Assembly (NCBI GenBank): GCA_963720945.1 | Contig: CAVRHH010000024.1 | Location: 1 to 64,000 of the forward strand | DNA: 64,000 nucleotides | Source of the DNA: an uncultured Actinomycetes bacterium | GTDB lineage: Bacteria; Actinomycetota; Actinomycetes; Streptosporangiales; Streptosporangiaceae | Direction: 5' to 3' | In this document: positions 8,179 through 64,000 of the stretch, one piece after another | Position numbering within the stretch: position 1 is the stretch's first letter | How the letters are laid out: each line of letters starts with the position of its first letter | The notes under the pieces: generated by a model | Seen by the model: the letters and a program-made list of their open reading frames with translations, nothing else | Database searches by the model: none | What the model was told of the DNA's origin: nothing | Position numbers and translations under genes: made by a program

Positions 8179-8550
8179 GAGGACCACGAGCCGCCGCCGT
8201 TCCTGACTGATCCGCCGGACCGCCCGGGCGGGCGACGGTGCGGGCAGTTTTCCGCCGCGGGGTGGTTTCCCGGGCCAGGCGGGGCATACAGGGAACCGAA
8301 CGGGGAACCGGAATCGTCGTAGTAAGAGGCACCGCCCTGGCCGCGCCCCGCCCGGCGGCCGGGGATATGACCCTGGGCGACGAGGTGGAAGCAAGTCCGA
8401 AACTACTGGGTCTCGAGGGTGGCGGTGAACGCCGGTATTGGTGTCGAATAGATCTGTCCGTGACCAAAGGTGACCCGTGCACTCAAGGTGACATAACATC
8501 CCGAACGGCACGTTCCCAGCCGTCACAGCACACACAGGCAGGGTGTCCTC

Positions 8551-9807: not shown

Positions 9808-9889
9808 CGGACCGCCTGCTGGCTCCCGCTCCGGCTGGCTGGCCGCTGCCGTTTCCTGACGGCTGGCTCGCGCTTCGGCCGGCTGGGCG

Positions 9890-14078: not shown

Positions 14079-15164
14079 TCAGAAGACAACGACGCTGCGC
14101 AGTACCTCACCGCGTTCCATCTTGCCGAACGCCTTCTCCACGTCGTCCAGCGCGATCGTCTCCGACACGAACTTCTCCAGCGGCAGGCGGCCGCCCAGGT
14201 GCAGGTCGACGAGCATCGGGAAGTCGCGGGTGGGCAGGCAGTCGCCGTACCAGGACGATTTGACGGCGCCGCCGCGGCCGAAGACGTCCAGCAGCGGCAG
14301 TTCCAGCCGCATCTCCGGGGTCGGCACACCGACGAGCACGACGGTCCCGGCCAGGTCGCGCGCGTAGAAAGCCTGCTGGTAGGTTTCCGGGCGGCCGACC
14401 GCATCGATGACCACGTCCGCGCCGAAGCCGCCGGTGAGCTCGCGGATGCGCCCGACCGGGTCACCGGCCCGCGCGTTGACCACGTCGGTCGCGCCGAACT
14501 GGCGCGCCCAGTCCAGCTTGCGGTCGTCCACGTCCACGGCGATGATGCGCGCCGCTCCCGCCAGGCTGGCGCCGAGGACGGCGGCGTCTCCCACGCCCCC
14601 GCAGCCGATCACGGCGACCGAATCACCCCGGCTGACCTGCCCGGTGTTCAGTGCGGCCCCCAGCCCGGCCATCACCCCGCAGCCCAGCAGGCCCGCCACC
14701 TCGGGGCGGACGGCCGGGTTGACCTCCGTGCACTGCCCGGCGGCGACCAGCGTCTTCTCGGCGAACGCGCCGATGCCGAGCGCGGGCGACAGCGGGGTGC
14801 CGTCGGCCAGCGTCATCTTCTGGCTCGCGTTGTGCGTATTGAAGCAGTACCAGGGCCGCCCGCGGCGGCAGGCGCGGCACTGCCCGCAGACCGCGCGCCA
14901 GTTAAGGATGACGAAGTCGCCGGGGGCCACGTCGGTGACGCCGTCGCCGACGGCTTCGACCACTCCGGCCGCCTCATGCCCGAGAAAGTAGGGGAAGTCG
15001 TCGCCGATCCCGCCCTGCTTGTAGTGCAGGTCGGTGTGGCAGACGCCGCACGCCTGGACGTGCACCAGGGCCTCTCCCGGTCCCGGATCCGGTACCAGAA
15101 TCGTCGTGACCTCGACTGGAGCACCCTTTTCGCGCGCGATCACGCCCTGCACGCTGTCCGCCAT
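14079..15164 (-). CDS. Zn-dependent class III alcohol dehydrogenase, homologue of S-(hydroxymethyl)mycothiol (formaldehyde) dehydrogenase
   Basis: [22 protein letters not shown] and [10 protein letters not shown] motifs. ATG at 15162-15164 (MADSVQGV). Confidence 0.85.
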
Positions 15165-15284
15165 CGGCTCACCCTCCCACCCGGGCCCGGCCGCCCGGCC
15201 GGATCTGGCCGCGGCGCCTCTCACCCTCATTACTTATCAGAGAAGGAACGGGCCGCCGGTGCCCGGCACAGCCAACGGCGCGTG

Positions 15285-17141
15285 CTACGGCTTGCCCGTC
15301 AGGAGGCCGCCGGCGCCCTGGCTGACGTTGCCGACCACGGTGCCCACGCTGCCGGTGACGCCGCTGACCGTGCTCCCGGCGTTCTTGACGGTGCCGCCGA
15401 CGGCGCCGCCGGCCTGCGTGACCGTGCTGCCCACGCCGGTGCTGCCCAGTCCGGCGCTGTTCACGCCCGCGCCCAGCTGCTGGGCTACGCCGGCCACCGC
15501 GTTGCCGAGGGTATTGGTGGTCGGGCCCAGCACGGTGCCGAGAACCTGGGTGGCGCCCGAGACGACCTGCCCGGTCCCGCTGACCGTGCCGCCGAGGGTG
15601 CCGCCCACGCCCTTGGTGACCGTCCCGATCGCCCCGATCGCCCCGCCGAGCCCGCTCAGCGCGGCAGACCCGGTGCCTGGGCTCGCGGTGGTCCCGCCGG
15701 TCGCGCCGGGACGGCCCGCGGTGCCCGCACCGGTCCCGGCGGGCGCGGCGCCGGCCGGCGTTCCCGCGGCGGGACTGCCGGACCCGGCGCCCGCCGCGCA
15801 GATCCGGGCGGCGACACCAGCGCAGCCGGTTCCCGTGGCCCCGCCGCCCGGGGTCACCGACGAGGCCGAGCCGAGCGGGCTGGCGGCGGCCGGGACGCGG
15901 CTGGATGCGGATGGGCCCGCCGGAGACACCGCGGCGGCCGGCACGGCCCGCCGGGAACCGGCGCCCAGGGGCCCGTACGGGCTGACGCTGACCGCGAAAA
16001 CCACGCCGCCGGCCACGGCCAGCCCGGCGGCGGCACTCGCGGCCGCGGCCACCGGGTGCAGCCGCACGTGCCCGCTCAGCCAGGCCCGGCCGCCCCGCCG
16101 GGCCGCGGCGCCAGCCTTGAGCCCCGCTCCCGCCGTCAGCCCCGCTCCGGCTTTCGCGCCCACGCCGGCCTTGAGGCCGGCGGCCGCCTTGGCCCCGGCC
16201 CCGGCCTTCACCGCGGCCGGGAGGACTCCATGGCCCGCGGAAGCCAGGGCGCCCGCACCGGCCAGCGCGGCGGGGGTGAGGATCGCCCCGAGCCGGCTGT
16301 TGACTTCGGTCAGCTCCGTGGCCAGGGCATAACAGCTGGGGCAGTGCTCGAGATGCTCATGGACGGCGCTACGGCGGCGCCGGCTGAGCCGACCGCGGGC
16401 GTCGGCGCCGAGCGCCTCCGCGTACGAACGGCAGGACGCGGAGATATTGCCGCCGATGTGCTCCTGCAGGTAGGCCTGCCGGAGCCCTTCGCGGGCCCGG
16501 ACGGCCAGGGCCGAGACGCCGTTGGCGGACAGCCCGAACATCGGCGCGACGGCAGCGGGCGCCTTCCCCTCGACCTCCAGCTGCCAGAGGACGGCGCGCC
16601 AGCGGGCCGGCAGGTGCGCAAAGGCCTGGGCGACCAGGCGGGCCTCGGCCCGGGCCTCGGTTTCCGCTTCCGGGCCGCGCGACAGCCGGGCGACGCCCAT
16701 GTTCTCTTCCGGCACGCGGTCTTCGAGGTCCTCGCCGAGATCGCCGACGACGGTGGTGCGGCGGCTGGCCCGCAGCCAGTCGTTGGCCGTGTTGCGCACC
16801 GCCGTCAGCAGGTAGGCCCGGAAGGCGAGGCCCGGCCCGCCGCCGGCCCGGATCGCGCCGAGCACCCGGGTGAAGGCCTCGGCGACGATATCGTCGGCGA
16901 CGTCACGCGGCACCATCGACAGGGCGACCCGGCGGGCGGCCGGCGCGTGCTCGACGTACAGCTCCTCATAGGTCTGGCCGGCGACGTCACCGATCGGCAG
17001 GATCGCCAGATCGTCAGGCCTGCGGTGCCGCGGCCGGCGACCGCTATCGGGGATCTGTCCGCCTGCTGTCCCGCTGAGCACAATGGCCTCCGGGCTGTGT
17101 CGGGTGCGGGACCGATAATGCCAACAATAAGGCCTCAACAC
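15285..17141 (-). CDS. ECF sigma factor fused in frame to a zf-HC2 anti-sigma-like domain, TM helix and Gly/Thr/Ala-rich repetitive C-terminal region
   Basis: Sigma region 2 (DDIVAEAFTRVLGAIRAG) and region 4 (VAPMFGLSANGVSALAVRAREGLRQ). HEHLEHCPSCY zinc-finger. KAGAGAK repeats. TM segment. A likely true start is GTG at 17078-17080 (minus strand), preceded by GGAGG. Confidence 0.7.
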   Translation of the reverse strand: MLRPYCWHYRSRTRHSPEAIVLSGTAGGQIPDSGRRPRHRRPDDLAILPIGDVAGQTYEELYVEHAPAARRVALSMVPRDVADDIVAEAFTRVLGAIRAGGGPGLAFRAYLLTAVRNTANDWLRASRRTTVVGDLGEDLEDRVPEENMGVARLSRGPEAETEARAEARLVAQAFAHLPARWRAVLWQLEVEGKAPAAVAPMFGLSANGVSALAVRAREGLRQAYLQEHIGGNISASCRSYAEALGADARGRLSRRRRSAVHEHLEHCPSCYALATELTEVNSRLGAILTPAALAGAGALASAGHGVLPAAVKAGAGAKAAAGLKAGVGAKAGAGLTAGAGLKAGAAARRGGRAWLSGHVRLHPVAAAASAAAGLAVAGGVVFAVSVSPYGPLGAGSRRAVPAAAVSPAGPSASSRVPAAASPLGSASSVTPGGGATGTGCAGVAARICAAGAGSGSPAAGTPAGAAPAGTGAGTAGRPGATGGTTASPGTGSAALSGLGGAIGAIGTVTKGVGGTLGGTVSGTGQVVSGATQVLGTVLGPTTNTLGNAVAGVAQQLGAGVNSAGLGSTGVGSTVTQAGGAVGGTVKNAGSTVSGVTGSVGTVVGNVSQGAGGLLTGKP

Positions 17142-17310
17142 CAGTTGATAGCCGGAGAATCACCGTCTATATGAGCTGGCCGACTGGGATATTCCGGCGA
17201 TTCGCACCGGAACGGAACAACCGGGTGGATAGGTAACCGTGCCGGCGGGCCGGCGAATTTCCGCCTTGTCCCGGTGCTTTTCGGACATGGCCCGCATTGT
17301 CCTTTATCTG

Positions 17311-18564
17311 CTATCCGCGCGCCTTTTCCTCAACGCTGCGTTCCCGCTCGCCGGGCCGGCCCGCCCGGCCTTTCCAGGCGCCGCCCCGGCCCGCGTAGTG
17401 CCGCCGGCCCGAGTCGGCGGTCATGGCCGCGTACATGAGCGCGATAGCGGGAAGCGTGGGGGCCCGCATCGGCGACAGCCGGTACAGCCGCAGCATCGGC
17501 AGGTAGCTGACCGCCATCGCCGCCCAGCCGGCCGCGCCGGCCGCCGCGCAGAGCGGCGGCCCGGCGCCGATCCGGCCCGCGCCCCCGGCCAGCGCGATCA
17601 GGCCCGCTATCGCACTGACCGGGGGCAGCACGTAGAGCCAGGCCAGGCCGGCGAGCGTGCCGGCCAGCAGCCACGGCGAGTACCGGAGCTGGGTGTAGGC
17701 CGACCGCGCCACCATGTCCCACAGGTCCGCGAGCCCGTGATACGGGCGGACGCTCCGGACGCTGGTGGTGAGCCCCAGCCAGCACCGCCCCCGGGACGGT
17801 GGCCGCTTCAGCAGGCGGCCGAGGGCGACGTCATCGATGAGCGCACCGCGGATGGGAGCCAGGCCGCCGGCCGCATCGAGCGCGCGGCGGCGGACGAGCA
17901 TGCATCCGCCCGCCGCTGCGGCGGTACGGCCGCCCGGGCGGTTGACCCAGCGGAACGGGTACAGCTGGGCGAAGAAGTAGACGAACGCCGGGATGATCGC
18001 CTTCTCCCAGCCGGTCTCCGTGCGCAGCAGGACCATCTGCGATACCAGGTCACGGTCGCTGGCCTCGGCCGCGGCTACCAGCGCGCGCAGCGCACCGGGC
18101 TGCTGCCAGGCGATGTCGGCGTCGGTGAACAGGATGTAGGGCGCGCCGGCGCCGGCCGCCGCCAGTCCCTGCGCCATCGCCCAGGGTTTGCCGGCCCAGC
18201 CGGGCGGCGGAGCCGCGCCGGGCACGACGCGCAGCGCACGGGGCGCCCCGGCGGCGAGGGCGGCGGCGACCTCACCGGTGCCGTCGGAGCTGCTGTCGTC
18301 GACGAGCGTGACCGAGAACGGGCCGGGATAGTCCTGGGCCAGCAAAGCCGGCAGTGTGACCGGCAGGACGGCCGCCTCGTCCCGGGCCGGCACGACGGCG
18401 GCGACCTCCGGCCATACGAGGGTACCGGCGGCACCGGCAGACCCGGCATCTCCCGCGGCCGGGCCGGGCAGCCGCTGATCCGTCCGCCAGAACCCGCCGT
18501 GCCCCGTCAGCAGCACGGCCCAGGCCACGGCGGCCAGCGCCGCGGCGATACCCAGAGCACCCAC
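17311..18564 (-). CDS. Family 2 glycosyltransferase with C-terminal transmembrane domain (polyprenyl-phosphate sugar synthase-like)
   Basis: GT2 signature VTLVDDSSSDGTGE...FTDADI, followed by about four TM helices. Confidence 0.75.
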   Translation of the reverse strand: MGALGIAAALAAVAWAVLLTGHGGFWRTDQRLPGPAAGDAGSAGAAGTLVWPEVAAVVPARDEAAVLPVTLPALLAQDYPGPFSVTLVDDSSSDGTGEVAAALAAGAPRALRVVPGAAPPPGWAGKPWAMAQGLAAAGAGAPYILFTDADIAWQQPGALRALVAAAEASDRDLVSQMVLLRTETGWEKAIIPAFVYFFAQLYPFRWVNRPGGRTAAAAGGCMLVRRRALDAAGGLAPIRGALIDDVALGRLLKRPPSRGRCWLGLTTSVRSVRPYHGLADLWDMVARSAYTQLRYSPWLLAGTLAGLAWLYVLPPVSAIAGLIALAGGAGRIGAGPPLCAAAGAAGWAAMAVSYLPMLRLYRLSPMRAPTLPAIALMYAAMTADSGRRHYAGRGGAWKGRAGRPGERERSVEEKARG

Positions 18565-53244: not shown

Positions 53245-54963
53245 TTACCGGCGCGGAAGCGATCCGGCTCTATGCGATGGCCCTGACTGGAGTTCATCGC
53301 CACGGTCCTGGCGCTGGTGATCTGGCGAGGGCTGATCGGCCTGGCTTGCCTGCCGGTGCCGGCGGCCGGATGGCCGGTGCGCAGGCGGTGGGCCCTCAGC
53401 CTGGCCCTCAGCCTGGCCCTCAGCCTGGGCAATCCCGTGTTCGCGGCGAATGATTGGCATTGGCTGGGTGGTGACCACGTTAGGCCACGCCCAGCCGATC
53501 TGGTTCGGGGGGGCCGGGGTCGACATGGCCATCAGAACGGCCAGCCCCTCCTCCTGCTGGACCTGCAGGCCGGAATCAACTGCGCTCCTGGAGACAACGG
53601 GGAACCAAATCGTAGGCGCGTTCGCAGCAGCCGTGGATGCCGCGGCGTCCGCGGCAGACGCGGCATCCACGGCAGCCGAATTGCTCTGCCCGGCGACCTT
53701 CCGGTGCCGACCATAGCCAGCAGCCGCGCGCATGACGGCCGGGGTGGTGAACAGAGCCTCAGCCATTGTGACCAGCAGCCCGGCGAACGTCATCCCGACC
53801 AGGCCGCCGCGCAGGCAGCCGATCACCGACGCAATGACGTTAACCACGGCAAAGGCCGTCAGGACGGTTGCTGCTCGCGTCAGCTTGCCGTTTGCGCGGC
53901 AGACGGCAACGTAAAAGGAACCGGGAATGGCGGGCAGGTAGGTAAGGACGAGCAGTTGCATGGGCAGCGTGGCCACATCAGCGTAGCCTGAGCCAAATAT
54001 TTGCAGTATGTAACGAGCGCCAAAACCTAGTATCGCCATTCCCGGTATACCCAGCAATATTGATATGCGCAAACTCAGGCGGAGCTGCCTGGCCATCCCA
54101 TCCGAGTCACCAGAGGCGACCGCGAAGAGAACCGTAGAAACGTGTCCTGGCAGGACGTACAGGAAACTGCAGATGGTCCAGGCGGCATAAAAGCCGGCGT
54201 TCGCAGAAGGCAACAGGATCGAGGCCGCCAGCACCGGGACCAGCAGGCCAGGAGCCGAGATGGCAAGATTCAGCCAATTGTGAGCCGCCACGGTCCCGCC
54301 GAAGCTTTTAAGCACGCCCCACTCCGGCCTACGCAGGAAACGCTCGTGTTGCAGCCCTAGCTGGGCCGCGACCACGAGTAGCGATACCGGAATAGCAGCC
54401 ACCCAGGACAAGAAAAGCCCAATACCCAGGGTGTAGTGCAGGACAGTAGCTACGCCAATCAGGGTCAGCAGTTTCACAACCGCGAATGCCATGTTTCGCG
54501 TCAACTGCAGTCCGCCGCGCAGCAAACCGATTGCGGCAGCGTCAAATACGGCCGACGCCGTGGTCAGGACAACCCCGGCACAGAGGAGGGCCGCGTGCAG
54601 CGGAGTCCCGATAACAGTGCTGAAATGCGTAGTGAAGTAAGGGGCCACGAAGATAAAACCGACGGACAATATCAGCGATCCGACACCCGCCGCGAACACT
54701 GCCGCCCAGATAAGGCCGGAACGATTGCCGGTTCGCCCGGGCAAGCTCCCGATAAGGAGGGTGCTGAGGCCAAATACACCAAATGACGAGAGCAGCGTCA
54801 TCACTGATACGGCCCCGGCGCCATAGCCAACGGCCTGCTGGCTGAATAGCCGGGCCGCAAGATCCCAGTAGGCCAAGCCCAGGGCCGAGGTAAGCCCGGT
54901 CGTGGCAATAAGGCTCGCTGCATTGACAAGCAGGGCCTTATACCGGCCCAGGGAAGGCATCAT
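53245..54963 (-). CDS. MOP-superfamily polysaccharide/oligosaccharide flippase (Wzx-like)
   Basis: Twin ATG at 54958-54963 (MMPSLGRYKALLVNAASL...). About 14 TM helices. The C-terminal ~120 aa tail has low complexity (AEGQ x3). Confidence 0.7.
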   Translation of the reverse strand: MMPSLGRYKALLVNAASLIATTGLTSALGLAYWDLAARLFSQQAVGYGAGAVSVMTLLSSFGVFGLSTLLIGSLPGRTGNRSGLIWAAVFAAGVGSLILSVGFIFVAPYFTTHFSTVIGTPLHAALLCAGVVLTTASAVFDAAAIGLLRGGLQLTRNMAFAVVKLLTLIGVATVLHYTLGIGLFLSWVAAIPVSLLVVAAQLGLQHERFLRRPEWGVLKSFGGTVAAHNWLNLAISAPGLLVPVLAASILLPSANAGFYAAWTICSFLYVLPGHVSTVLFAVASGDSDGMARQLRLSLRISILLGIPGMAILGFGARYILQIFGSGYADVATLPMQLLVLTYLPAIPGSFYVAVCRANGKLTRAATVLTAFAVVNVIASVIGCLRGGLVGMTFAGLLVTMAEALFTTPAVMRAAAGYGRHRKVAGQSNSAAVDAASAADAAASTAAANAPTIWFPVVSRSAVDSGLQVQQEEGLAVLMAMSTPAPPNQIGWAWPNVVTTQPMPIIRREHGIAQAEGQAEGQAEGPPPAHRPSGRRHRQASQADQPSPDHQRQDRGDELQSGPSHRAGSLPRR

Positions 54964-55380
54964 GCTGGTCCAGGGCGATCGATGGCCCCGGTCCGCGCAC
55001 TCACCTTCCTGGCCGAACCGGGCGGGCGGAAGAAATAAGTTCCGGCGGCCGGCAGGAGCTGATGGGCCCGCCGCGCTCGCCGGTCTCGTTCCGGGGCCGC
55101 CGCTTCTCGGCCGCGCCCGGCGGGCCGGGACGCAAACCGCCGGCACGACCGCGAGGCATGGTTGCCCGGATCCGGCAGGCAATTGCGCGGTGATACCAAG
55201 AAGATCCCCTTCCTGACCGGAATGTCACCGCCCTCCACGGCCTCATGCACGGCACGCTCCCGGGTATCACCCACGCGAGGGAAGAACACCCCGGAGCACA
55301 TCGCCTGACAAAGCGCGGATCGACCAGAGCATGGCGATCCGGCTGTATCGTACCTTCTGTGCTGGCGAGCCCGCCCCTGA

Positions 55381-55420
55381 ACCGGGACACCCGGCCCGGA
55401 ACCGGGACACCCGGCCCGGA
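55381..55420. promoter_or_regulatory. 20-bp perfect direct repeat x2 (accgggacacccggcccgga) in the divergent flippase/GT4 promoter region
   Basis: Direct reading; units 55381-55400 and 55401-55420. Confidence 0.5.
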
Positions 55421-55556
55421 ACGAACGTCGGCCGCTGGGCGCCCTGCTGACACAGCGCTAGCGGCCCGGGCGCGGTTCCCTCGTTGAGCCGGCCGCAGCG
55501 CCGGCCGCGGGCCTGGCCGAATGCGCGACGAGTCTTTCCGGAGGGAAGAATATTCC

Positions 55557-56684
55557 ATGCGTATCATTTTCGCGGTCCAGGGACCGAGCGTTCCGTATCA
55601 GTTTGCCGGCAGCACCATGGACATTCACCACCTGGCACTAACGCTCGCATCTGAGGGGCATGACGTCGCGGTGGCCTCAGCGCTGCCCGGGCTGCCGGAA
55701 TCGGTGAGATTCCGGCAGCTTCCCTACCGGTTCCTGCAGGCTGCCTCCCGGAAAGAACTCGTTATCTACCGCGATACCGACAGCGGCTATGAGACATTCC
55801 GGGCCGGGAATTGGCTCGTCCCCCGGCTGCTGGAGGAACGAATAGCAGCATGGCGCCCAGATATCGTTGTGACACAAGGACAAGATTCCTGGACACTCGC
55901 ACTTGCAGCCGTTAGCCGAGGGGTCCCGGTTGTCCTGCGGCAGATAGACCTGTGGGGCGTTGAAGTGCTCGCCGAAGCGGCCGCAAAGGATACCGCAGTT
56001 GCGGCACTATTGCGTAGCCCGCTATTCTCCATAGTGAGCAACTCGGCATTTATAGCCGCTAAAGCTGAAGAGCTCCTTCAGGTTTCCTCGCCCGTCGTCC
56101 ATCCCCTGATCAGGCCCGAGGATTCCACCTGCGACAACATCGACCCCAGGTACATCACCTTTATCAGCCCGGTCCCCTGGAAAGGCCTGACGGTCGCCCT
56201 GGAGGTAGCACGGCTGCTCCCGCACCGGGACTTTCTCTTCGTCCAGGGCTGGCGCAGGAGCGCGGCGGAGCGCAAAAAACAGATAGCTGACCTGGCCGGG
56301 CTGCCCAACGTCGTCTTGCGGCCCAACTCCGCCGGGCTCAAAGACGTCTTCGCGTCGACCGCGGTGCTCCTGGCGCCCTCCCAGATCGAAGAGGCCTTCG
56401 GCCGGGTCATCATAGAGGCAGGCCTTAACGGCATCCCCGCCGTGGCCAGCCGCATCGGCGGAATCCCCGAATCCATCGGCGAATCGGGCGTCCTGCTGCC
56501 GCCCACGGACCCGCCGCAACGCTGGGCCGATGCGATTGACCGGATGCTCTCAGATCCAGCGTCCTACGCAAGACTGCGCACCGCTGCCCTTGCTAACGCA
56601 CAGCGACAGGAATTCGCGGCAACGACGATCGCGGAAAGATTCATCAAGGTCCTCACCAGCCAGCTCCGCACCGTCCCGGCATAA
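55557..56684 (+). CDS. Family 4 (GT-B) glycosyltransferase
   Basis: Glycos_transf_1 C-terminal motif (EAFGRVIIEAGLNGIPAVASRIGGIPE). ATG 55557 preceded by GGAGGGA. Confidence 0.85.
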   Translation: MRIIFAVQGPSVPYQFAGSTMDIHHLALTLASEGHDVAVASALPGLPESVRFRQLPYRFLQAASRKELVIYRDTDSGYETFRAGNWLVPRLLEERIAAWRPDIVVTQGQDSWTLALAAVSRGVPVVLRQIDLWGVEVLAEAAAKDTAVAALLRSPLFSIVSNSAFIAAKAEELLQVSSPVVHPLIRPEDSTCDNIDPRYITFISPVPWKGLTVALEVARLLPHRDFLFVQGWRRSAAERKKQIADLAGLPNVVLRPNSAGLKDVFASTAVLLAPSQIEEAFGRVIIEAGLNGIPAVASRIGGIPESIGESGVLLPPTDPPQRWADAIDRMLSDPASYARLRTAALANAQRQEFAATTIAERFIKVLTSQLRTVPA

Positions 56685-57134
56685 TCCCTTCCGCGCGACC
56701 GGGAAGTCCTAGGCCCTGAGTGCCTTTCGCGAACCAGGTCCCGTTGGGGCGGGGACGGGAGCTGCTGCGCCGGCCGTATCAGGATCACCTGGACCTGCTG
56801 GACCTGCTGGCGGCGCGGGAAGAGCGCCGCCACGACGTAACCGGCCCGGAAGGAATTGCGCGGACGCGGGCGGCGAGGCAGAGCGCCGCGACCCGGGTCA
56901 CCGCCGCACCTGGCTCGCCCTGGCCGACGGTAACCGCACCCAGATCGACGCAATCACCGACGAGTCGTATCGAATGATTACAAGTAAACCTCTCGTGGCA
57001 TATCCGCGTCCTCTATCGTGGCCGGTACCTGAGGAGCAAGTTATGACTGGTGGGGAAGCGGCGTGGACTTCTCACTGAGCGCCGGGACGGCCACGGAACA
57101 AGCGCTAGCAGACACACGGAAGGAAGGTGCTCAG

Positions 57135-57398
57135 GTGGAGACGGTCATCAACGATTACATCAGCCGGGAACTCGTCCAGGACCCGGCGCTGCTGCCGCTG
57201 GCGGACGATACATCACTACTGGAGAGCGGCATCCTCGATTCGCTGAGCCTGCTGCGGCTGGTGGTCTTCCTGGAAGAGCGGTTCGGGATCACGATGGGCG
57301 ACGCGGACCTGCTCCCGGAGAATTTCGCCAGCGTGAACACTATCTGCGCCTACCTCCGCGCTCGGGAGCCCGGAAAGCAGCAAGCCTCGCGTGGGTGA
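57135..57398 (+). CDS. Acyl carrier protein (phosphopantetheine attachment site DSL)
   Basis: GILDSLSLLRLVVFLEERFGI. GTG 57135 preceded by GGAAGGAAGG. Overlaps the downstream acyltransferase by 8 nt. Confidence 0.7.
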   Translation: METVINDYISRELVQDPALLPLADDTSLLESGILDSLSLLRLVVFLEERFGITMGDADLLPENFASVNTICAYLRAREPGKQQASRG

Positions 57399-58428
57399 CC
57401 GCCCCGCGGGAGGGCTGCTGGGCAACGTGGTACGCGTGGCCTTCTCGGCAGCCCTGGCCCGTCTGCCGGCCGCCCTCGGCTACCGCATCGCATGCTGGCG
57501 CGCCGACTCACTTTTCCGGCGCCAGGACGGAAAGAGCACCGAGATAGCTCGCAACCTGCAACTGGTGCTCGGGGACGAGCTCAGCCCGGCGGCGGTGCAG
57601 GAGGTGACCCGGGAGTGGTTCCGGCTCGCCTCCTGCGAGGCGGTCGACATGGAGCGGCTACGGTTCACGACACGGCCCCTGCGGCGGCTGGTCGAGATCC
57701 GTGGGCGGGAACACCTGGAGGCCGCGCTGGCCGCGGGCAAGGGAGCCATCCTTGGCACCGGCCACTTCGGCTCGCACAGCAGCGCCTTCTCGGTGCTGCA
57801 CGCCAGCGGCTTCCCGGTCACCACCGTCGGGCGCTGGCACCACAAGTACACGCCCGGCCTCTCATCCGCCGAGCGGCGGTTCTGGCACCTCTACTTCAAG
57901 CCCGTGCGGCGCCACCGGCAGCGGCCGAACATCGAGCCATGGCCTGGCCGGCCCCAGGTCGCGGTGCTGGCAGCGGCCGCACTCCGCGCCAATGAGGTGG
58001 TGACGATCGCGATCGACGCGCCGCCGCTGGACAGCGACCAGGCCCGCGCCGTCCAGGTTCCCTTCCTCGGCCGCCAGGCCGGACTGCTGCCCGGGGCAGT
58101 GGCCCTCGCCCAGGTGACCGGCGCGCCGCTGCTCATGGGTTTCGTGTACCGCGCGGCCGACTACCGCCACCAGGTGCTGGAGATCTCCGCGCCCGTGCCG
58201 GTGGAGGGAAAAACCGCGACGGCCTTCGAGCGCTGCGCCGCCGAGATGAGCGCCGCCATCCTGAGCAGCCCGGCCCACTGGGAATTCTGGGCGAAAACGG
58301 GCGATCTTGACGTCCTCGGGCTGATCCCGCCGCAAGGGGACGGCTCATCAGCCGCGGGGCCGGGCCTTCTGCCGGACGGGAGAATCCTCAACGATGGATC
58401 AGCGGATAGCGTCCCGGCTCGAGGCTGA
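57391..58428 (+). CDS. Lipid A biosynthesis (LpxL/HtrB)-type / PatA-like lysophospholipid acyltransferase family protein
   Basis: GTGHFGSHSSAF HX4-like acyltransferase motif region. ~345 aa, typical of Lip_A_acyltrans. Confidence 0.7.
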   Translation: MGDRPAGGLLGNVVRVAFSAALARLPAALGYRIACWRADSLFRRQDGKSTEIARNLQLVLGDELSPAAVQEVTREWFRLASCEAVDMERLRFTTRPLRRLVEIRGREHLEAALAAGKGAILGTGHFGSHSSAFSVLHASGFPVTTVGRWHHKYTPGLSSAERRFWHLYFKPVRRHRQRPNIEPWPGRPQVAVLAAAALRANEVVTIAIDAPPLDSDQARAVQVPFLGRQAGLLPGAVALAQVTGAPLLMGFVYRAADYRHQVLEISAPVPVEGKTATAFERCAAEMSAAILSSPAHWEFWAKTGDLDVLGLIPPQGDGSSAAGPGLLPDGRILNDGSADSVPARG

Positions 58429-58547
58429 CCTGTTCCTGCTGCACGCTCCGAGCGTCTACGACTGCGGCCGGTGGTTCGACCGACGTCACCGTTCCGCAGC
58501 AGATGATCGAGGATATCTTGGCCACCCCGGTCGGCCGGTGATACTCC

Positions 58548-58618
58548 ATGCGTATCATTTTGCGGTCCAGGGCCTCCGGCAGCTTCCCTGCTGGTTCCGC
58601 ACAATCCCGGCATAATCC
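58548..58618 (+). pseudogene. Internally deleted remnant of a second copy of the GT4 gene (first ~30 nt fused to last ~45 nt plus 3' flank)
   Basis: 58546-58575 matches 55555-55585 (ccatgcgtatcatttt[c]gcggtccaggg). 58590-58650 matches 56664-56720 (ccgcac..tcccggcataatccctt..ccgcg..gac.gggaagt.ctagg). Confidence 0.55.
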
Positions 58619-58638
58619 CTTCTCCGCGACGGGAAGTA

Positions 58639-59961
58639 CTAGGGTCTCCATCTCGCAGGCCTGGCAGCGTGGCGCGGCGCAGGACGCCCAGAGGGCGACA
58701 ACCTATAGGCCGCGATTGGCGTATTAATCCCCGGCTGGTGTGCTGCCCTGACGTGAAGGAAAAGGTCCGCGATCGTCGACAGAGCGACAGCCGCGAAGTT
58801 CGCAAAAAACAGGACCGAGTACCGCAGCGAAGAACCGGTCAGCGGGCCGGAATCCCACTGCGTGTGAAACAAGGCCAGCCACCAGAGCGCAAGCAAAGCC
58901 GCCACCATGGCTACCAGGCCGCTGAACCGGGGTACGGCAAGCCACCGGGATCCCCATATCCAGAACAGTGGCAGCAGGTACAGCGTATAAGCGCTGTGCG
59001 ACACGGGGAGAATAAGCACGACGCAGCCGGCCACGTGCCAGAATCCCAGGGCCGAGTTCTCTCCCCAGCGCAGGCCCAGCACCAGCAAGCCCAGCACAAG
59101 TGCCGCGAGCGTGAAGGTCACCGCGGCCTGCACGGGGGATGAGACGAATAGCGGCCGGGCCAATCCACTGCGGGAGAAAAGGATCTTCGGTACACCCCAG
59201 ACCGAATAACTGACAAGCTGCTGGGATCGTGCGTCCACGGTGACCCTGAAAAAGTCCATGAGCCCGGGTATGCCCCCGGTAGCAAGCGCGAGGACCGGGC
59301 CTACCGTGAGCGTGGCCACCAGCCCGGCGAGCGCGCGCAGGCGGCCTCGGTAACCTCGCCGGAAAAACGCCAATGCGATGATGGTCGGCCACGTCTTTAT
59401 CAGCCCGCCCACGCCGGTCAGCATCCCGGCTGCGGCGGGCCAGCCAGACGCTGCGGCCAGTACTGCCGCGGCCAGGAATACCAGGACGAAGGCATCGGCC
59501 TGCCCATTCGAGAGCTCTGCCTCCGTCGGCATAAACACCAGGACTGTAAACGAGGCGAAGCCAAAGAAGACTGGCTGCCGCCAGGATGGCAGGTACGGTG
59601 CTCCCGTCATCGTCACGAGGACGGCGAAGAGCACAAGGAAGGCGATGGCCAGGGCCGTGTACACGTGCCACACGTGGACGGTCGCCGCAGCGGAGAACGG
59701 GATCAGGACCACCGCCAGCAGGGGCGAGTACACGTACCCGAAACCTTTGGATATATCGCTGAAGCTGTAAAGGCCGCGGCCCGCTGATAGTTGCCGCGCC
59801 CCCTGCAAGTAGGTCCAGAAATCGCCGCCATTCCCCGAAGGTCCCGCGGGTACGACATTCTCCAGCAGGCTGTAACGCCAGTAAGCCAGGGCCCCGGTGG
59901 CAGAGATGGCAAGAAGCCATAGCAGGCGGCAGCCCACTCGGGCCATCTTCACTCTGGTCAC
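58639..59961 (-). CDS. DUF2029/GT87-like polytopic membrane glycosyltransferase (polyprenol-phosphate-sugar dependent)
   Basis: 440 aa, about 11 TM helices, conserved N-terminal GDFWTYLQGARQL region typical of the DUF2029 mannosyltransferase-like family. Confidence 0.55.
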   Translation of the reverse strand: MTRVKMARVGCRLLWLLAISATGALAYWRYSLLENVVPAGPSGNGGDFWTYLQGARQLSAGRGLYSFSDISKGFGYVYSPLLAVVLIPFSAAATVHVWHVYTALAIAFLVLFAVLVTMTGAPYLPSWRQPVFFGFASFTVLVFMPTEAELSNGQADAFVLVFLAAAVLAAASGWPAAAGMLTGVGGLIKTWPTIIALAFFRRGYRGRLRALAGLVATLTVGPVLALATGGIPGLMDFFRVTVDARSQQLVSYSVWGVPKILFSRSGLARPLFVSSPVQAAVTFTLAALVLGLLVLGLRWGENSALGFWHVAGCVVLILPVSHSAYTLYLLPLFWIWGSRWLAVPRFSGLVAMVAALLALWWLALFHTQWDSGPLTGSSLRYSVLFFANFAAVALSTIADLFLHVRAAHQPGINTPIAAYRLSPSGRPAPRHAARPARWRP

Positions 59962-59990
59962 TGCCTGCCCCCGGGTTCCGGCCAGGATTA

Positions 59991-60740
59991 TTATGCTCGG
60001 CCGGCCATACGCGACGGTTTATTCGCCAGCAACGACTGCACCGTGTTTTTCAGCCACAGCTGTTCCGGCGAATCGCCGTCACGGATAAAGGTACGCCTGA
60101 TCGCGTACTGCCCAGTAAACTGCGTTTCCGAGATGGCGCAGGCGTAATCGTAGCCCGCCGCTTCTACCGCCTTGACCGTACGCTCATCGAGATGGCCATA
60201 CGGATAACAGAAGCCAGTGATCTCCTGGCCGGTGATCTCCTGAAGTATGCGCCGGCTCTCGTGAATTTCACTGGCCAGCTCGGCGTCGCCGACGGAAGGG
60301 AGCGACACATGATGCATCCCGTGCGAGCCAATCTCGACTCCTGCTGACGCCACCTCGCGCAGTTGGTCCGCGGTCAGCAGGGCTTTACGAGTCCCCTCGC
60401 GATCCCACTCATTGCTTCCCGCGAGCCTTCCGGCGATCATAAACAGCGTGGCCGTGAACCCGTAGCGCTGCAAGACCGGCAGTGCGTTCTCGGCGAAGTC
60501 AGCGTATCCGTCATCAAATGTGAGGCCCACGAGGCGCTTCTGGGAACCCTGCTGCCACGCGTGCAGCAAATTGCTGACCGATGTCCCCGTACGGCCGAGA
60601 CGACGTAGCGACCGTAGTTGCTTCCGGAAGCGCTCCGGGCGCACCGTTAGCTCATATGGGTCATCGTGACGGGGCGCCACGGAGTGATACATCAAAGGCG
60701 CAATTTCCGTGTATACCGCTTCGTTCAAGTCCTTGGCCAC
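59991..60740 (-). CDS. Polysaccharide deacetylase (CE4, NodB homology domain)
   Basis: TFDDGY motif 1, HGMHH motif. 249 aa. Confidence 0.85.
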   Translation of the reverse strand: MAKDLNEAVYTEIAPLMYHSVAPRHDDPYELTVRPERFRKQLRSLRRLGRTGTSVSNLLHAWQQGSQKRLVGLTFDDGYADFAENALPVLQRYGFTATLFMIAGRLAGSNEWDREGTRKALLTADQLREVASAGVEIGSHGMHHVSLPSVGDAELASEIHESRRILQEITGQEITGFCYPYGHLDERTVKAVEAAGYDYACAISETQFTGQYAIRRTFIRDGDSPEQLWLKNTVQSLLANKPSRMAGRA

Positions 60741-60753
60741 CTAGATATCTTAA

Positions 60754-62037
60754 TTAAAGATGTGACGAGGCGCTGGCTGCCCGGCGTGCAGCCCGGCGGT
60801 AAGACAGTGCGCCGATCAGGGCCCCCCGGGCCTCGATGAGCACCAGCCGCCGGCCGCCCACCCGCATCTGGCCGGCCCGCGAAGCGTTCCGCGTGCGACG
60901 CAGCATGGCGGTTGCGTGACGGAGCGCGCGGGTAAGCAGCACGACTGGCATCTGTCCGCTGAGCAGATGCTTACCCAGGTAGGCGCCCAGTCCGTGGCCG
61001 TAGGAGTAGATCTGCTCCGCCAGCGCGTCCTCGTCCGAGCGGTGCCGGTGCCAGACCAGGGATGACGGCAGGTAACAGATTCGGCCGCCGGCCAGGATGA
61101 TGCGGAGGAACATATCCAGATCCTCGCCACCCCGGCCGGGCCCACCTACGCCCAGTATGGGGTCGAAGTCGCCGAGTTCCTTTACGGCGCTGCGGCGGAT
61201 CGCGAAGTTGGCGCCGGTCCCGAAAACTCCGGCATTGAAAGGGTAAAGCGCCGAAGAATGACGATGAGCGGCGAGATCGTAACGGCGGGGCTCAAAGGCT
61301 TCGCCCCATGAGTATCGCGAATCGAAGTAGCGCTCCGCGCCGGTGTTCAGCGAGCTCGAAGCGACCAGGCCCGTCACGCACACTGTCCCGGGATCAGCCG
61401 CGAACCCAGCAGCGACGGCGGCGAGCCAGCCAGGATCGACCCGCACGTCATCGTCGGTGAAACAGATCAGATCGAACTGTGCTCGCGCCAGCCCGTGATT
61501 ACGGGCGCGGGACAGACCAGGTTCGGGCTCGCATGTGTACTGTATCCGTGCGTCCGCTTGGGCCAGGCTCGTCACGAGCTCACGCGTCTCATCGCTCGTC
61601 GGCGCGTTATCGACAACGAGGATCTCGAGTGGTTCATAATTGATCTGCTGGATTGACCGCAGGCACTTGTGCAGGCCTTCTGCCCGGTCCCTGGTGCAGA
61701 TGATGACCGTCACGCCCGGGCCACCGGACGCAAAGCGGTCTGGGCAGGACACGGAAGCCATCCATCCGGCTGATTCCTGCGTATCCAGAGCCGCCTTATC
61801 GAGCTCTTCATGGCGCCGTAGCGGCGCCGCAAGCGTTTTCTCGGCGACACTAATGGCCCGGGCGGTCAGGCTTTCCGCCGGCGCGGCTGGGAGCTCGATA
61901 TACCCGATCGGCGCATGGTGCATACGTACCAGTACCCGGGCCATACCATGCTGCTCACTGAGCGGTCCGCTCATGCCACGGACGGGCCCAGAATCGTCCA
62001 GATCCAAGAGGCTGACCCAGATGCTAGCTTCTGTCAT
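60754..62037 (-). CDS. Family 2 glycosyltransferase (soluble type with ~100-aa N-terminal extension)
   Basis: VTVIICTRDRAEGL...DDDVRVDP DxD motif region. Confidence 0.8.
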   Translation of the reverse strand: MTEASIWVSLLDLDDSGPVRGMSGPLSEQHGMARVLVRMHHAPIGYIELPAAPAESLTARAISVAEKTLAAPLRRHEELDKAALDTQESAGWMASVSCPDRFASGGPGVTVIICTRDRAEGLHKCLRSIQQINYEPLEILVVDNAPTSDETRELVTSLAQADARIQYTCEPEPGLSRARNHGLARAQFDLICFTDDDVRVDPGWLAAVAAGFAADPGTVCVTGLVASSSLNTGAERYFDSRYSWGEAFEPRRYDLAAHRHSSALYPFNAGVFGTGANFAIRRSAVKELGDFDPILGVGGPGRGGEDLDMFLRIILAGGRICYLPSSLVWHRHRSDEDALAEQIYSYGHGLGAYLGKHLLSGQMPVVLLTRALRHATAMLRRTRNASRAGQMRVGGRRLVLIEARGALIGALSYRRAARRAASASSHL

Positions 62038-62491
62038 TGTGCTCCTGCCCGGCTGGTGGCAATGGACGTCGGCCGGTTATGAGAAGTCATGCAAGGTGTG
62101 CTGGGAGCAAGGTAGCAAGCTTTTCTGCTGGTCATCGGGGAACAACCAAAAATTCTCAAGCTCTCGGTGATAGGCCCGTTACGGAACGTAAACCCGCCCG
62201 GGTGCAGTTCGTTAATCCCGCGCCGGTGGCCACCTGGATAGCCATTCATGTACGTAGGGTAAAGATTCCCTCAATCATTGTGACGCACTGTGACGGCACT
62301 GACAATTTACCGTAAAGCACAGTTTGATCCAAAAGCACAGTCGGCCGCGTATCGCCACGATAGTGTGGGCCCTCAGGCGCATCCGGTGACGCCCGCAGCT
62401 CGGGCTTGCCCCGGCGCGGTGCGGCTGCCGTTGCGAGCTGATGGCACATCTGGTGGTCGCACAGGTAGTCGGCCAGAGGTGAACGGCCGCC

Positions 62492-63613
62492 TTGATTATG
62501 CGTCATCGAGACCTCGTCGATGAACTCAGACGACGCAGCCCCGAGACTGGACGGAGGGCGTTGGTGAAGCCCCTTGCGCGAGGCTGTTCTGGTGTGACCG
62601 TGGTCATCTGCTGCTACACAGAGCAACGATGGGAGCAAACCTGCGCCGCGGTTAAGTCTGCCTTGAGCCAGGATCCTGCACCCGCGCAGGTGCTTCTGGT
62701 GGTCGACCACAACGCCGCGCTGGCGGCACGCGCCAGGCGTGAGCTCACCGACGTGACGGTGCTGGAAAACGAGGGGCCTACCGGGCTATCCGGCGCCCGC
62801 AACACAGGCCTGCGGGCGGCGACTCAGCCCATCACGGCCTTCCTGGATGACGACGCCGAGGCGTGGCCGGGCTGGATGGCGGCTCTCGTCGAGCCTTACG
62901 CGCGCGCCAATGTGGTAGCCACCGGCGGTGGTGTGCACCCCGTATGGCCCGAGCAGGCGCCGCGCTGGCTGCCAGCAGAGTTCTACTGGGTTGTGGGCTG
63001 CAGTTACCTGGGGCTACCGGAGTCGGGGGGCGAGATACGCAATCCGATCGGCGCCAACATGAGCATGCTCACCCGCCTGGCTCTCGAAGCCGGCGGCTTC
63101 GACGAGGGAATAGGGCGGCTGGGCGGCAATACACGAGGCTGCGAAGAGACCGAGCTTTCCATCCGGCTGACCGCCCGATCGCCCGGATCAGCCGTCATGT
63201 ACGTACCCACCGCGGCGGTGGACCATCACGTGACCCAGGACCGTCTGAAGCTGGGCTACTTCATCAGCCGCTGCTGGCATGAGGGCCGCTCCAAGGCCGA
63301 CGTGGTACGGCTGGCCGGCTCCGGCCCGGGTCTGGAACGGGAACGGCGGCAAGCTGTGCTGGTCATTCCCGCGGCCTTGCTCCGGGAGCTGCGCCGCCTG
63401 CTCACCGGCGATGTGGCCGCACCGGCCAGGATGACGGCGAACCTGGCCGGGCTCGCGAGCGCGGCGGCCGGATATTTCACCGGACGGGCCCGCCAAGCCG
63501 TCCAGCGTCAGGGCCCGGCTCTCCCTCAGGACACGACAGGTCCTGAGGGAGATAGTCATGCAGAGGAGCTGCCGGCCACGACTGACCGCGGGGCGGCTTC
63601 GCGGCGGAGCTGA
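62492..63613 (+). CDS. Family 2 glycosyltransferase
   Basis: VTVVICCYTEQRWEQ...LDDDAEAWPGW. Confidence 0.8.
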   Translation: MIMRHRDLVDELRRRSPETGRRALVKPLARGCSGVTVVICCYTEQRWEQTCAAVKSALSQDPAPAQVLLVVDHNAALAARARRELTDVTVLENEGPTGLSGARNTGLRAATQPITAFLDDDAEAWPGWMAALVEPYARANVVATGGGVHPVWPEQAPRWLPAEFYWVVGCSYLGLPESGGEIRNPIGANMSMLTRLALEAGGFDEGIGRLGGNTRGCEETELSIRLTARSPGSAVMYVPTAAVDHHVTQDRLKLGYFISRCWHEGRSKADVVRLAGSGPGLERERRQAVLVIPAALLRELRRLLTGDVAAPARMTANLAGLASAAAGYFTGRARQAVQRQGPALPQDTTGPEGDSHAEELPATTDRGAASRRS

Positions 63614-64000
63614 CGCCGGCTCTTGAAGTACAGCCACGGCCCGAGCGCCATGCCGCGGAACTCCCGTTTGGCCAGGCCGGCCGGGAGGACAGGATTGTCC
63701 TTCGTCCGGTCGCCGATAGCCGAGACGCGGATCGCCCCGGCGACGATCTTGGCCGGTAGTTCGCGTCTTGCCTTCCCGCTACGCAGCAGGAGAGCGGTGA
63801 GCGCGGCCGTACAGCCGGAACCGTAGGCCAGCATCTGACGGGACAGGTCGTGCAGGTTGTCGCGATGGTCGTGCCAGATGATCGCTGACGGCTCATAGAC
63901 AAGACGGTGGCCGGACAGAACCGTGCGCACGAACACGTCAAGGTCTTCCCCGCCGCCGCTGGGCGTCCCGGCGCCGAGCGCCTCGTCGAAGCCGCCCAGC
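63556..64000 (-). CDS. Family 2 glycosyltransferase, C-terminal part (gene continues beyond the window end)
   Basis: ...IIWHDHRDNLHDLSRQMLAYGSG... matches the C-terminal region of the other two GT2 genes. The N-terminus lies outside the window. Confidence 0.55.
   Translation of the reverse strand, partial: LGGFDEALGAGTPSGGGEDLDVFVRTVLSGHRLVYEPSAIIWHDHRDNLHDLSRQMLAYGSGCTAALTALLLRSGKARRELPAKIVAGAIRVSAIGDRTKDNPVLPAGLAKREFRGMALGPWLYFKSRRQLRREAAPRSVVAGSSSA

Follow-up and report, generated by a model that had tools for sequence, protein, structure and literature searches.

A probable remnant of a peptidyl carrier protein-dependent amino-acid acylation cassette in a variable glycan island of an uncultured actinomycete

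The window analysed here, a stretch of 64,000 nucleotides of contig CAVRHH010000024.1 from an uncultured actinomycete, ends in a cluster of genes for glycan assembly, in which a small carrier protein and an acyltransferase of the LpxL/PatA superfamily are encoded side by side. The gene inventory is based on the calling of open reading frames (ORFs) with a check of third-position GC, and on Pfam and NCBIfam searches, and it contains all genes that had been listed in an earlier prediction for this DNA (the original prediction), at or near their predicted positions (Table 1). The GC content is ~71% across the rest of the window but 61-68% from ~52 kb to the window end, and the lower GC persists through the following 9.6 kb, which were read from near-identical public soil metagenome contigs (e.g., ENA ERZ25039593 contig_19846, 117 kb); exact protein matches indicate that the window derives from such soil assemblies. 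The cluster continues over at least these 9.6 kb, as had been predicted. To the left of the flippase gene lie unrelated genes (PolX-like PHP, APH and lipoprotein), which places the beginning of the island at ~52-53 kb. This lower-GC region represents a variable island for surface-glycan assembly in an uncultured actinomycete of soil or peat, and its Wzx-type flippase, CE4 deacetylase and glycosyltransferase (GT) genes of the families GT4, GT87 and GT2 agree with the glycan assembly locus that had been proposed. We consider it likely that the carrier-acyltransferase pair inside this island is what remains of a cassette for peptidyl carrier protein (PCP)-dependent acylation with an amino acid, most likely proline.

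Table 1. Features of the glycan island in the window. L009 and L039 are related loci; the A gene encodes a stand-alone adenylation enzyme; SAM, S-adenosylmethionine; TM, transmembrane.
Feature	Coordinates	Strand	Details
Wzx-type (MOP superfamily) flippase candidate	53245..54969	-	574 aa, polytopic, 13 TM-like segments, disordered C-terminal tail
GT4 glycosyltransferase, intact copy	55557..56684	+	PF13692 2e-18, PF00534 5e-16
Scar of the upstream deletion	56998..57134	+	junction shared with L009 (56998-57031), eroded 3' end of A gene, ribosome-binding site of PCP
Type II PCP (predicted from sequence relationships)	57135..57398	+	PF00550 PP-binding 5.9e-8; 87 aa
LpxL/PatA-superfamily acyltransferase	57391..58428	+	PF03279; 345 aa
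Dead remnant of B12-binding radical SAM gene	58394..58541	+	codons 1-23 (58394-58462); codons 558-576 and stop (58482-58541)
Collapsed second GT4 copy	58541..58633	+	93 bp: start, one internal piece, 3' end
GT87/DUF2029-type polytopic (GT-C-like) glycosyltransferase	58639..59946	-	PF09594 5e-13; 10 TM-like segments
CE4 polysaccharide deacetylase	59991..60740	-	PF01522 9e-33; TFDDG motif; dN/dS 0.19 vs L009
GT2 glycosyltransferase GT2a	60754..62037	-	PF00535 4e-25
GT2 glycosyltransferase GT2b, AglG-like	62564..63613	+	PF00535 7e-17
Third GT2, C-terminal part	63556..64000	-	431 aa in full; cut by window end

Domain searches confirmed the proposed families of the GT4, carrier, acyltransferase, GT87, CE4 and GT2 genes, while the start of the carrier gene had to be moved. 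Its likeliest start is the GTG at 57135, which is preceded by a GGAAGGAAGG ribosome-binding site and is preferred over 57063 because the DNA that precedes 57135 shows homology to the 3' end of a different gene. The phosphopantetheine attachment serine of the resulting protein sits in a GILDSL motif. The predicted 8-nt overlap with the acyltransferase gene was confirmed (57391-57398), and it is the same in every related locus for which gene calls were returned. The original prediction had called the carrier an acyl carrier protein (ACP). Its top matches in the PDB, however, are PCPs, namely 2MY5 (1.7e-12), PltL (1.2e-5) and PigG (1.5e-4), and it stays far below the cut-offs of the fatty-acid ACP models (TIGR00517, 19.5 vs 70.45 bits; AcpM, 18.4 vs 146). 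It also matches the carrier chain of 6CXT, the dehydrogenase chain of which matches the dehydrogenase of the cassette described below. The top NCBIfam match of the carrier, the ornithine-lipid ACP of the OlsHI system, was rejected, since it scores 47 bits against a cut-off of 130 and since OlsH is a GH3-like planctomycete enzyme that has no counterpart here. Moreover, neither the window cluster nor the 9.6 kb beyond it contains genes for a ketosynthase (KS), FabZ, FabF, a fatty acyl-AMP ligase (FAAL) or an acyl-ACP synthetase. The carrier thus has the features of a type II PCP: it is a small stand-alone PP-binding protein with the conserved serine, and its nearest solved relatives are PCPs. 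The adjacent proline-activating adenylation (A) enzyme and prolyl-PCP dehydrogenase that would accompany it are found in the related loci, not in the window itself. Judged by its PCP-like matches and by the amino-acid loader and prolyl dehydrogenase of its relatives, the carrier is a type II PCP, on which the expected acyl group would be amino-acid-derived, not fatty.

The acyltransferase clearly belongs to the LpxL/PatA superfamily. It matches PF03279 with 69.4 bits (cut-off 22.3; E 3.8e-19) over positions 20-286 of the 295 in the profile. Its sole sequence match in the PDB is PatA, at ~22% identity, and its residues H125 and D209, which are invariant in 24 family members, align to the catalytic H126 and E200 of PatA in the HMMER alignment. 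A Foldseek search of the PDB with an AlphaFold model of moderate quality (pLDDT 61) found no chains other than those of PatA and LpxM (E 8e-7 to 3e-5, target TM-score ~0.62) before the noise began. At the same time it remains under all equivalog cut-offs for PatA and LpxL (PRK07920 for PatA, 63.6 vs 209; TIGR02207, 29.4 vs 297.8), and it has no N-terminal membrane anchor. Relatives are numerous: a large metagenomic protein collection holds at least 1,768 of them, the best 120 of which are 70-100% identical and essentially unnamed, and an exhaustive search of 1.84 billion representatives gave 70 clusters below E 1e-30, none of the ten checked having an informative name: they contained only metagenomic proteins with automatic 'lauroyltransferase' labels. 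Public labels found in this clade include 'KDO2-lipid IV(A) lauroyltransferase', 'lauroyl/myristoyl acyltransferase' and 'phosphatidylinositol dimannoside acyltransferase'. One 2.4-kb contig with a homolog has been binned as Burkholderiales; this bin and the automatic names look unreliable.

A scan of species-representative genomes yielded 30 related loci, all from metagenome-assembled genomes of uncultured Actinomycetota, several of which are labelled Streptosporangiaceae. When these were searched with all proteins of the cluster by tblastn, the carrier (79-95% identity) and the acyltransferase (65-88%) were found together in 28 of the 30 loci. Because of this co-occurrence, we regard the two proteins as a genuine functional pair. 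Of the proposal that a private carrier serves the acyltransferase, the pairing thus stands, while the fatty acylation attached to it does not, since the carrier groups with the type II PCPs. The GT genes of the window are shared much less widely. They are common to locus L009, which has the same cluster (87-96% identity), and in part to L010 and L039 (GT2 genes, 67-78%), whereas L035 and L037 reach only 26-43%.

The pair is embedded in a recurring gene order in these loci, which consists of an acyl-CoA dehydrogenase-family flavoenzyme (ACAD), an AMP-binding enzyme (the A enzyme), the 87-aa carrier, an optional TrpB-like pyridoxal phosphate (PLP) enzyme, the acyltransferase and an optional B12-binding radical SAM enzyme. 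Two contigs are too short for a judgement; across the 28 informative loci the A enzyme accompanies the PCP-acyltransferase pair in 25 and the ACAD does so in 24, and in 17 loci the TrpB-like enzyme is inserted beside the PCP. The ACAD matches the PigA model (3e-130) and the RedW L-prolyl-PCP dehydrogenase model (2e-127) more than 100 bits better than any ordinary ACAD model, and its top PDB matches are the prolyl-ACP dehydrogenase 4IRN (6e-124) and PigA (5ZW0, 7e-91). The best of these, AnaB, carries out a two-electron oxidation only. The A enzyme exceeds the cut-off of the amino-acid adenylation model TIGR01733 (396 bits vs 317), and its top single-domain matches in the PDB are two L-proline-PCP ligases, PltF and PigI (6O6E, full length, 1e-100, and 7THN). 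LgrA outranks them with a score that sums two adenylation domains, so that PltF stands sixth, below five copies of LgrA. Its pocket code reads DLFSIAWVCK in 22 of the 25 copies, and both Asp235, which binds the alpha-amino group, and the catalytic Lys517 are present; the GrsA sequence served only as a ruler for the pocket positions. These matches point to L-proline as the most likely substrate of the A enzyme, and the cassette probably follows the well-known route from this amino acid to a pyrrole-2-carboxyl or pyrroline thioester on the carrier.

The cassette closest to that of the window is found in L039 and L010, where it lies inside a GT2/CE4 block with GT2 genes that are 70-78% identical to those of the window. 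In a further locus (L041; ERZ25039467 contig_4080, 111 kb) two cassettes, at 6839-11077 and 14785-17766, lie 4 kb apart in opposite orientation. Their acyltransferases differ by a dN of 0.027 and a dS of 0.025, and genes for a DDE transposase and integrase-like proteins are nearby; DDE transposases also adjoin the cassette in L040 and L042. The double cassette and the transposases fit a cassette that duplicates and moves, and it appears to move between glycan loci. In two loci (L042:2877-12629 and L037:6878-14935) the cassette is interleaved with genes for LanB_N (PF04738), 53-aa ORFs, the TrpB-like PLP enzyme and an asparagine (Asn)-synthase-like amidotransferase, which hints at a peptide scaffold or an amino-acid-derived product in those sub-types.

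In the window, by contrast with the complete loci, the pair is flanked by scars. The junction that abuts the 3' end of the A gene is common to the window and L009, so the deletion of the ACAD and A genes is older than their split. In L009 the A gene survives in its final 43 codons (72% identity to L039), whereas the A tail of the window has eroded further. On the other side of the pair, the two fragments of the radical SAM gene, 91% and 89% identical to the L039 protein in tblastn, are mutually out of frame and amount to 42 codons in total; the remnant in L009 is larger and covers residues 2-140 and 521-576. Gene callers place an 87-aa ORF at 58388-58651 on the minus strand, wholly over the radical SAM and GT4 scars, and this ORF is almost certainly spurious.

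The second GT4 copy that follows has collapsed to pieces which form direct repeats with the intact copy: D5 (55550-55570/58541-58561, 95%), D2 (55711-55734/58575-58598, 92%) and D1 (56656-56702/58587-58633, 81%). The 16-mer CCGGCATAATCCCTTC at its end has exactly two occurrences in the window, where 0.01 would be expected by chance. A 40-bp direct repeat flanking the pair was considered as a target-site duplication or att site, but is better explained as the 3' end of the collapsed GT4 copy, and its hairpin does not exceed that of shuffled sequence in stability. In L009 the order is mirrored, with the collapsed GT4 upstream of the remnant and the intact one downstream (L009:2180-2311 vs 4597-4967). 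Since opposite copies have collapsed, the common ancestor had the arrangement GT4-cassette-GT4, from which the window and L009 have each lost a different GT4 copy. Such an arrangement would result from single-crossover (Campbell-type) integration of a circle that carried a GT4 homolog and the cassette. The remaining GT4 is 88% identical to its L009 ortholog, with a dN/dS of 0.20. Finally, when the window is compared with L039, the PCP and acyltransferase genes have a dS of 0.08-0.15 and the adjacent GT2 genes one of 0.7-1.5, and third-position GC is 0.86 in the acyltransferase gene vs 0.71-0.77 in the surrounding GT genes. Both values suggest that the history of the cassette differs from that of its surroundings.

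To learn what recurs around the cassette, ORFs were clustered across 32 non-redundant loci. The neighbours include two GT4 families (14 and 12 loci), Wzx-type flippases (8), CE4 (7) and Asn-synthase-like proteins (8), and a merged ORF cluster with GT2e-like (AglJ-like) and GH5-like members lies beside the cassette in 15 loci. As the recurrent neighbours are GT4, GT2, Wzx, CE4 and glycoside hydrolase (GH) genes, the most plausible role for the cassette family is the carrier-dependent acylation of a glycoconjugate. On the simplest reading of this gene context, the acceptor would be a glycan or glycolipid that is acylated on the cytoplasmic face before flipping.

The remaining genes of the island fit a glycan locus whose content varies. 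The flippase candidate has no Pfam or NCBIfam match of its own, even at E<=1, so that the earlier assignment gets its support from homologs: those at 50-58% identity match PF01943/PF01554 and are named as O-antigen or teichoic acid export proteins, and because of this PF01943 signature and these exporter names we consider the Wzx call reasonable. The C-terminal ~110 aa of the protein (53245-53700) form a low-complexity tail rich in Ala, Gln and Pro, including an AEGQAEGQAEG repeat. The length of the whole protein varies with the gene caller, from 554 to 587 aa among strains, and its dN/dS against L009, 0.58, is the second-highest in the cluster. In L009 the GT87 gene has shrunk to a 47-aa fragment (L009:5818-5958, 57% identity), whereas identity is 87-96% for the rest of the cluster genes; the gene content of the island thus shifts between close relatives. 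The CE4 protein contains neither a TM-like segment nor a hydrophobic N-terminal segment and, given the missing hydrophobic N-terminus, is probably cytoplasmic. The top NCBIfam match of GT2a is MftF-like and under the cut-off. GT2b, recorded as a 349-aa form in public assemblies, matches the AglG model NF041394 (1e-57) with 195 bits against a cut-off of 440. The full third GT2 of 431 aa is present in L005-L008 (PF00535, 1.6e-18). Beyond the window end follow this GT2, a GT2 of 343 aa and membrane ORFs of 943 and 133 aa and, further on, a GH16-like protein, a hexapeptide O-acetyltransferase, an AglJ/PpgS-like GT2 and a second GH16. The window and the 9.6 kb beyond it thus encode at least five GT2 enzymes.

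When the island is compared with Wzx/Wzy loci, Wzx is supported through its homologs, and no priming enzyme (PF02397/PF00953) or recognisable Wzy is found within +/-10 kb, nor is a WecA/WbaP-type phosphoglycosyltransferase within 10 kb of the glycan cluster. Two GT2s resemble enzymes of archaeal N-glycosylation, the 62564-63613 protein (AglG, 1e-57) and that encoded at L007:19742-20632 (AglJ, 1e-33), both under the cut-offs. Since an AglJ/PpgS-like GT2 and a GT87 occur here without a priming enzyme, the glycan may be built on polyprenyl monophosphate and then passed to the GT87-type membrane transferase. The 943-aa ORF (L007:13420-16251, minus strand; ~65983-68814 in window coordinates) is polytopic, with TM-like segments at aa 36-202 and 578-804. 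It has no Pfam match, and its aa 287-524 match, in frame, the group II intron reverse transcriptase (RT)/maturase model TIGR04416 (E 9e-39, 134 bits, cut-off 300). Rfam searches at gathering thresholds returned nothing in the window or L007, which leaves the RT-like ORF with no group II intron RNA nearby. The ORF could have arisen by fusion of part of an RT into the gene of a membrane protein, or it could be an intron insertion that has decayed while its reading frame stayed open. A scan for sigma-70 promoters between 55.2 and 58.8 kb found no promoter-like sites, and terminator-like sites were fewer there than in shuffled sequence.

The closest mechanistic precedents that we can name, by analogy of gene logic, are AlmEFG and CloN3-N6. 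The comparison with AlmEFG draws in part on the general background of the Alm literature. AlmG of Vibrio cholerae is described as a glycyl transferase that aminoacylates lipopolysaccharide, and it offers a documented precedent in which an enzyme of this superfamily receives its aminoacyl group from a carrier. In both systems an adenylating enzyme of the nonribosomal peptide synthetase (NRPS) type loads an amino acid on a small stand-alone carrier. The A enzyme, the carrier and the LpxL-superfamily transferase are encoded together in the cassette family, the window keeping only the last two. The Alm system differs in that it lacks a dehydrogenase, a radical SAM enzyme and a TrpB-like enzyme, uses glycine, and acts on the lipid A of a Gram-negative bacterium, whereas the cassette belongs to actinomycetes, where to our knowledge lipid A is not expected, and lies in a Wzx/GT context. 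The likeness drawn here is one of gene logic.

The proline-to-pyrrole triads PltF/PltL/PltE, PigI/PigG/PigA, RedM/RedO/RedW, CloN4/CloN5/CloN3 and AnaC/AnaD/AnaB are the best matches of the A enzyme, the carrier and the ACAD of the cassette. These triads feed assembly lines of polyketide synthases (PKS) or NRPS, or tailor antibiotic small molecules, and their transferases are KS-like or of the alpha/beta-hydrolase type (CloN7). The cassette, in contrast, has a transferase of the LpxL/PatA fold, polysaccharide surroundings and an ACAD below the cut-offs, and its copy in the window lacks both the A enzyme and the ACAD. In clorobiocin biosynthesis CloN4, CloN5 and CloN3 make a pyrrole-2-carboxyl unit from proline on a carrier, the methyltransferase CloN6 acts, and a sugar hydroxyl receives the unit (PMC11218499). 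According to the literature, CloN2 shifts the pyrrole unit between carriers. The methylation by CloN6 and the ester to a sugar parallel the B12 radical SAM gene and the glycan context of the cassette.

PatA, LpxL and LpxM share the Pfam family, the fold and the aligned catalytic His and acidic residue with the acyltransferase, and PatA is itself actinobacterial and acylates a glycolipid on the cytoplasmic face. However, PatA uses palmitoyl-CoA and LpxL acyl-AcpP, and neither is coupled to a PCP, whereas the family in the window is translationally coupled to one. The rhizobial AcpXL/LpxXL and NodFE systems likewise place a dedicated carrier beside a transferase, and NodABC combine a GT2, a CE4 deacetylase and acylation. 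AcpXL clusters carry genes of the FabZ/FabF type that build the very-long-chain acyl group; such genes are lacking here, and the carrier is PCP-like. A relationship to the Nod system is contradicted by the absence of NodA, by scores far below the cut-offs of the NodC (32 bits vs 550) and NodB (33 vs 240) models, and by the placement of the acyltransferase in PF03279.

We propose that in the intact cassette a stand-alone adenylation enzyme would activate an alpha-amino acid, most likely L-proline, and load it on the 87-aa PCP. The ACAD-family flavoenzyme would then oxidise the carrier-bound residue to a pyrroline- or pyrrole-2-carboxyl thioester, which in some versions of the cassette might be modified further by the B12 radical SAM or the TrpB-like PLP enzyme. 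Finally, the LpxL/PatA-fold acyltransferase, translationally coupled to the carrier, would pass the acyl group on to a cytoplasmic acceptor, at a hydroxyl or an amino function. This acceptor is probably a lipid-linked glycan intermediate that is acylated prior to flipping. In the lineage of the window, such a cassette would have entered between the two GT4 copies; it then lost the ACAD and A genes in one deletion before the split from L009, and nearly all of the radical SAM gene and one GT4 copy disappeared later.

A number of observations weigh against this reading. A tblastn search across all 64 kb of the window and the 9.6 kb that follow found neither an A nor an ACAD gene. In the related loci the ACAD scores under the curated cut-offs (PigA, 435 vs 500; RedW, 425 vs 650), the pocket code was read with the GrsA ruler alone, and the acyltransferase model, at pLDDT 61, resolves the active-site region poorly. 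LanB_N (PEARL-like) and Asn-synthase-like genes adjoin the acyltransferase in some relatives, which means that a peptide or a small molecule, instead of a glycan, may be the acceptor. Moreover, in a three-taxon branch decomposition the omega (dN/dS) of the acyltransferase is 0.83 on the window branch and 0.94 on that of L009, vs 0.30 on L039 plus the stem (99.4% of bootstraps), and such near-neutral evolution fits decay as well as re-tuning. The pair might thus be a relic, in which the carrier can no longer be charged, both ORFs are young pseudogenes-in-waiting, and the glycan of the locus is not acylated by them. Three of the five cassette genes have been deleted and their scars are still eroding, the GT87 gene and one GT4 copy are likewise decaying in one or the other lineage, and the acyltransferase is only 83% identical between the window and L009, compared with 92-96% for the neighbouring genes. 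In the window it has also replaced an otherwise invariant Cys three residues before the catalytic His. The pairwise dN/dS against L009 is 0.80 for the acyltransferase and 0.18-0.32 for the GT4, CE4, GT2 and PCP genes; on its own this value does not prove decay, since the family evolves fast in general and an omega of 0.3-0.9 is seen in intact cassettes too, and it was replaced by the branch decomposition together with control branches and an indel count. On the control branches, which come from intact cassettes, omega lies between 0.25 and 0.80, so that a high value is found there as well. The adjacent A-gene scar (~145 bp) has accumulated five indels and 35 mismatches against L009, whereas the 1,294 coding bp of the PCP and acyltransferase genes show zero indels or stops between the two; at the scar ratio of ~1 indel per seven substitutions, ~14 indels would be expected in the acyltransferase gene, and none is present. 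The window has preserved the His and Asp of the catalytic site, the Ser motif of the PCP and the coupling overlap of 8 nt, and along its branch the PCP is free of nonsynonymous changes. We read this pattern as a pair that is probably still under selection for an intact product, with amino-acid constraints that would have loosened or be shifting. That the pair is still in use, with a carrier loaded in trans by a paralogous cassette, is the possibility towards which we lean slightly; such trans-loading is conceivable because L041 has two cassettes in one genome. For the genome of the window itself a second cassette would have to be assumed, and the relic, although we think it the less likely outcome, therefore keeps substantial weight.

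Two other alternatives concern what the pair transfers and to what. The original prediction proposed that a fatty-acyl ACP feeds an LpxL-type enzyme, so that a sugar is fatty-acylated, possibly after N-deacetylation by CE4, to give a lipoglycan, lipo-oligosaccharide or lipid-A-like molecule. It is true that the acyltransferase belongs to PF03279, that the only two relatives with solved structures, PatA and LpxM, are fatty-acyl transferases, and that a cytoplasmic CE4 adjoins the pair. Against this, the carrier lies far under the fatty-acid ACP models and closest to PCPs of solved structure, the loader in the relatives is an amino-acid adenylation domain with the Asp that binds the alpha-amino group, its partner resembles a prolyl-PCP dehydrogenase, and the cluster has none of the genes for fatty-acyl supply (KS, FabZ, FabF, FAAL, acyl-ACP synthetase). 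The acyltransferase widely misses every LpxL and PatA equivalog cut-off, which speaks against lipid-A-like or lipo-oligosaccharide chemistry, and the Nod comparison above does the same for lipo-chitooligosaccharides. The cassette context has largely refuted the fatty-acyl model already, and we hold it to be very improbable. A deacetylation step that precedes N-acylation is a separate matter and stays conceivable, as the cytoplasmic CE4 lies next to the pair. A small secondary metabolite or a peptide-derived product, e.g., a pyrrole-containing amino acid made with the TrpB-like enzyme and PEARL-like LanB_N proteins, is somewhat less remote but still improbable, and it is equally doubtful that the acyltransferase acts on such a scaffold, with GT neighbours that are coincidental or glycosylate the metabolite. 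The TrpB-like enzyme does lie beside the PCP in 17 loci, several loci have LanB_N (PF04738), 53-aa ORFs and Asn-synthase-like, PLP-decarboxylase or MurT-like genes nearby, and the proline-to-pyrrole triad is classically a natural-product module. However, the commonest recurring neighbours are of the polysaccharide type (two GT4 families, GT2, Wzx flippase, CE4 and GH5/GH16), even the cassette closest to that of the window (L039/L010) lies in a GT2/CE4 block, and there is no adjacent NRPS or PKS assembly line.

Returning to the PCP-dependent acylation cassette, the locus is otherwise an ordinary variable glycan island, and the interest lies in the cassette family. Experiments would better start from complete loci of the L039/L010 type than from this one, where the pair is only a truncated remnant. 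Only tentatively do we extend our reading to the intact cassette as a widespread, multi-copy and laterally exchanged module of uncultured soil Actinomycetota that might put pyrrole- or pyrroline-2-carboxyl groups on surface glycans by ester or amide linkage, the copy in the window borrowing its charging enzymes from a paralogous cassette. A PCP-dependent acyl-tailoring module with an LpxL-fold enzyme and chemistry of the proline-to-pyrrole type is apparently undescribed in the literature searched. For annotation, the locus is a warning: an ACP next to LpxL prompts a lipid reading, which the genomic context contradicts, and labels such as 'Kdo2-lipid IVA lauroyltransferase' or 'PIM acyltransferase' are routine for this clade. 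If our reading is true, a large unnamed clade of the LpxL/PatA fold would handle amino-acid-derived acyl groups from PCPs, not fatty acids. Its members would be the first PCP-dependent glycan acyltransferases of the LpxL superfamily in Gram-positive bacteria, and the decoration of glycans with pyrrole or pyrroline would be previously undescribed. The AlmEFG principle would then extend to the surface glycans of Gram-positives, and the proline-to-pyrrole chemistry of natural products would join polysaccharide tailoring.

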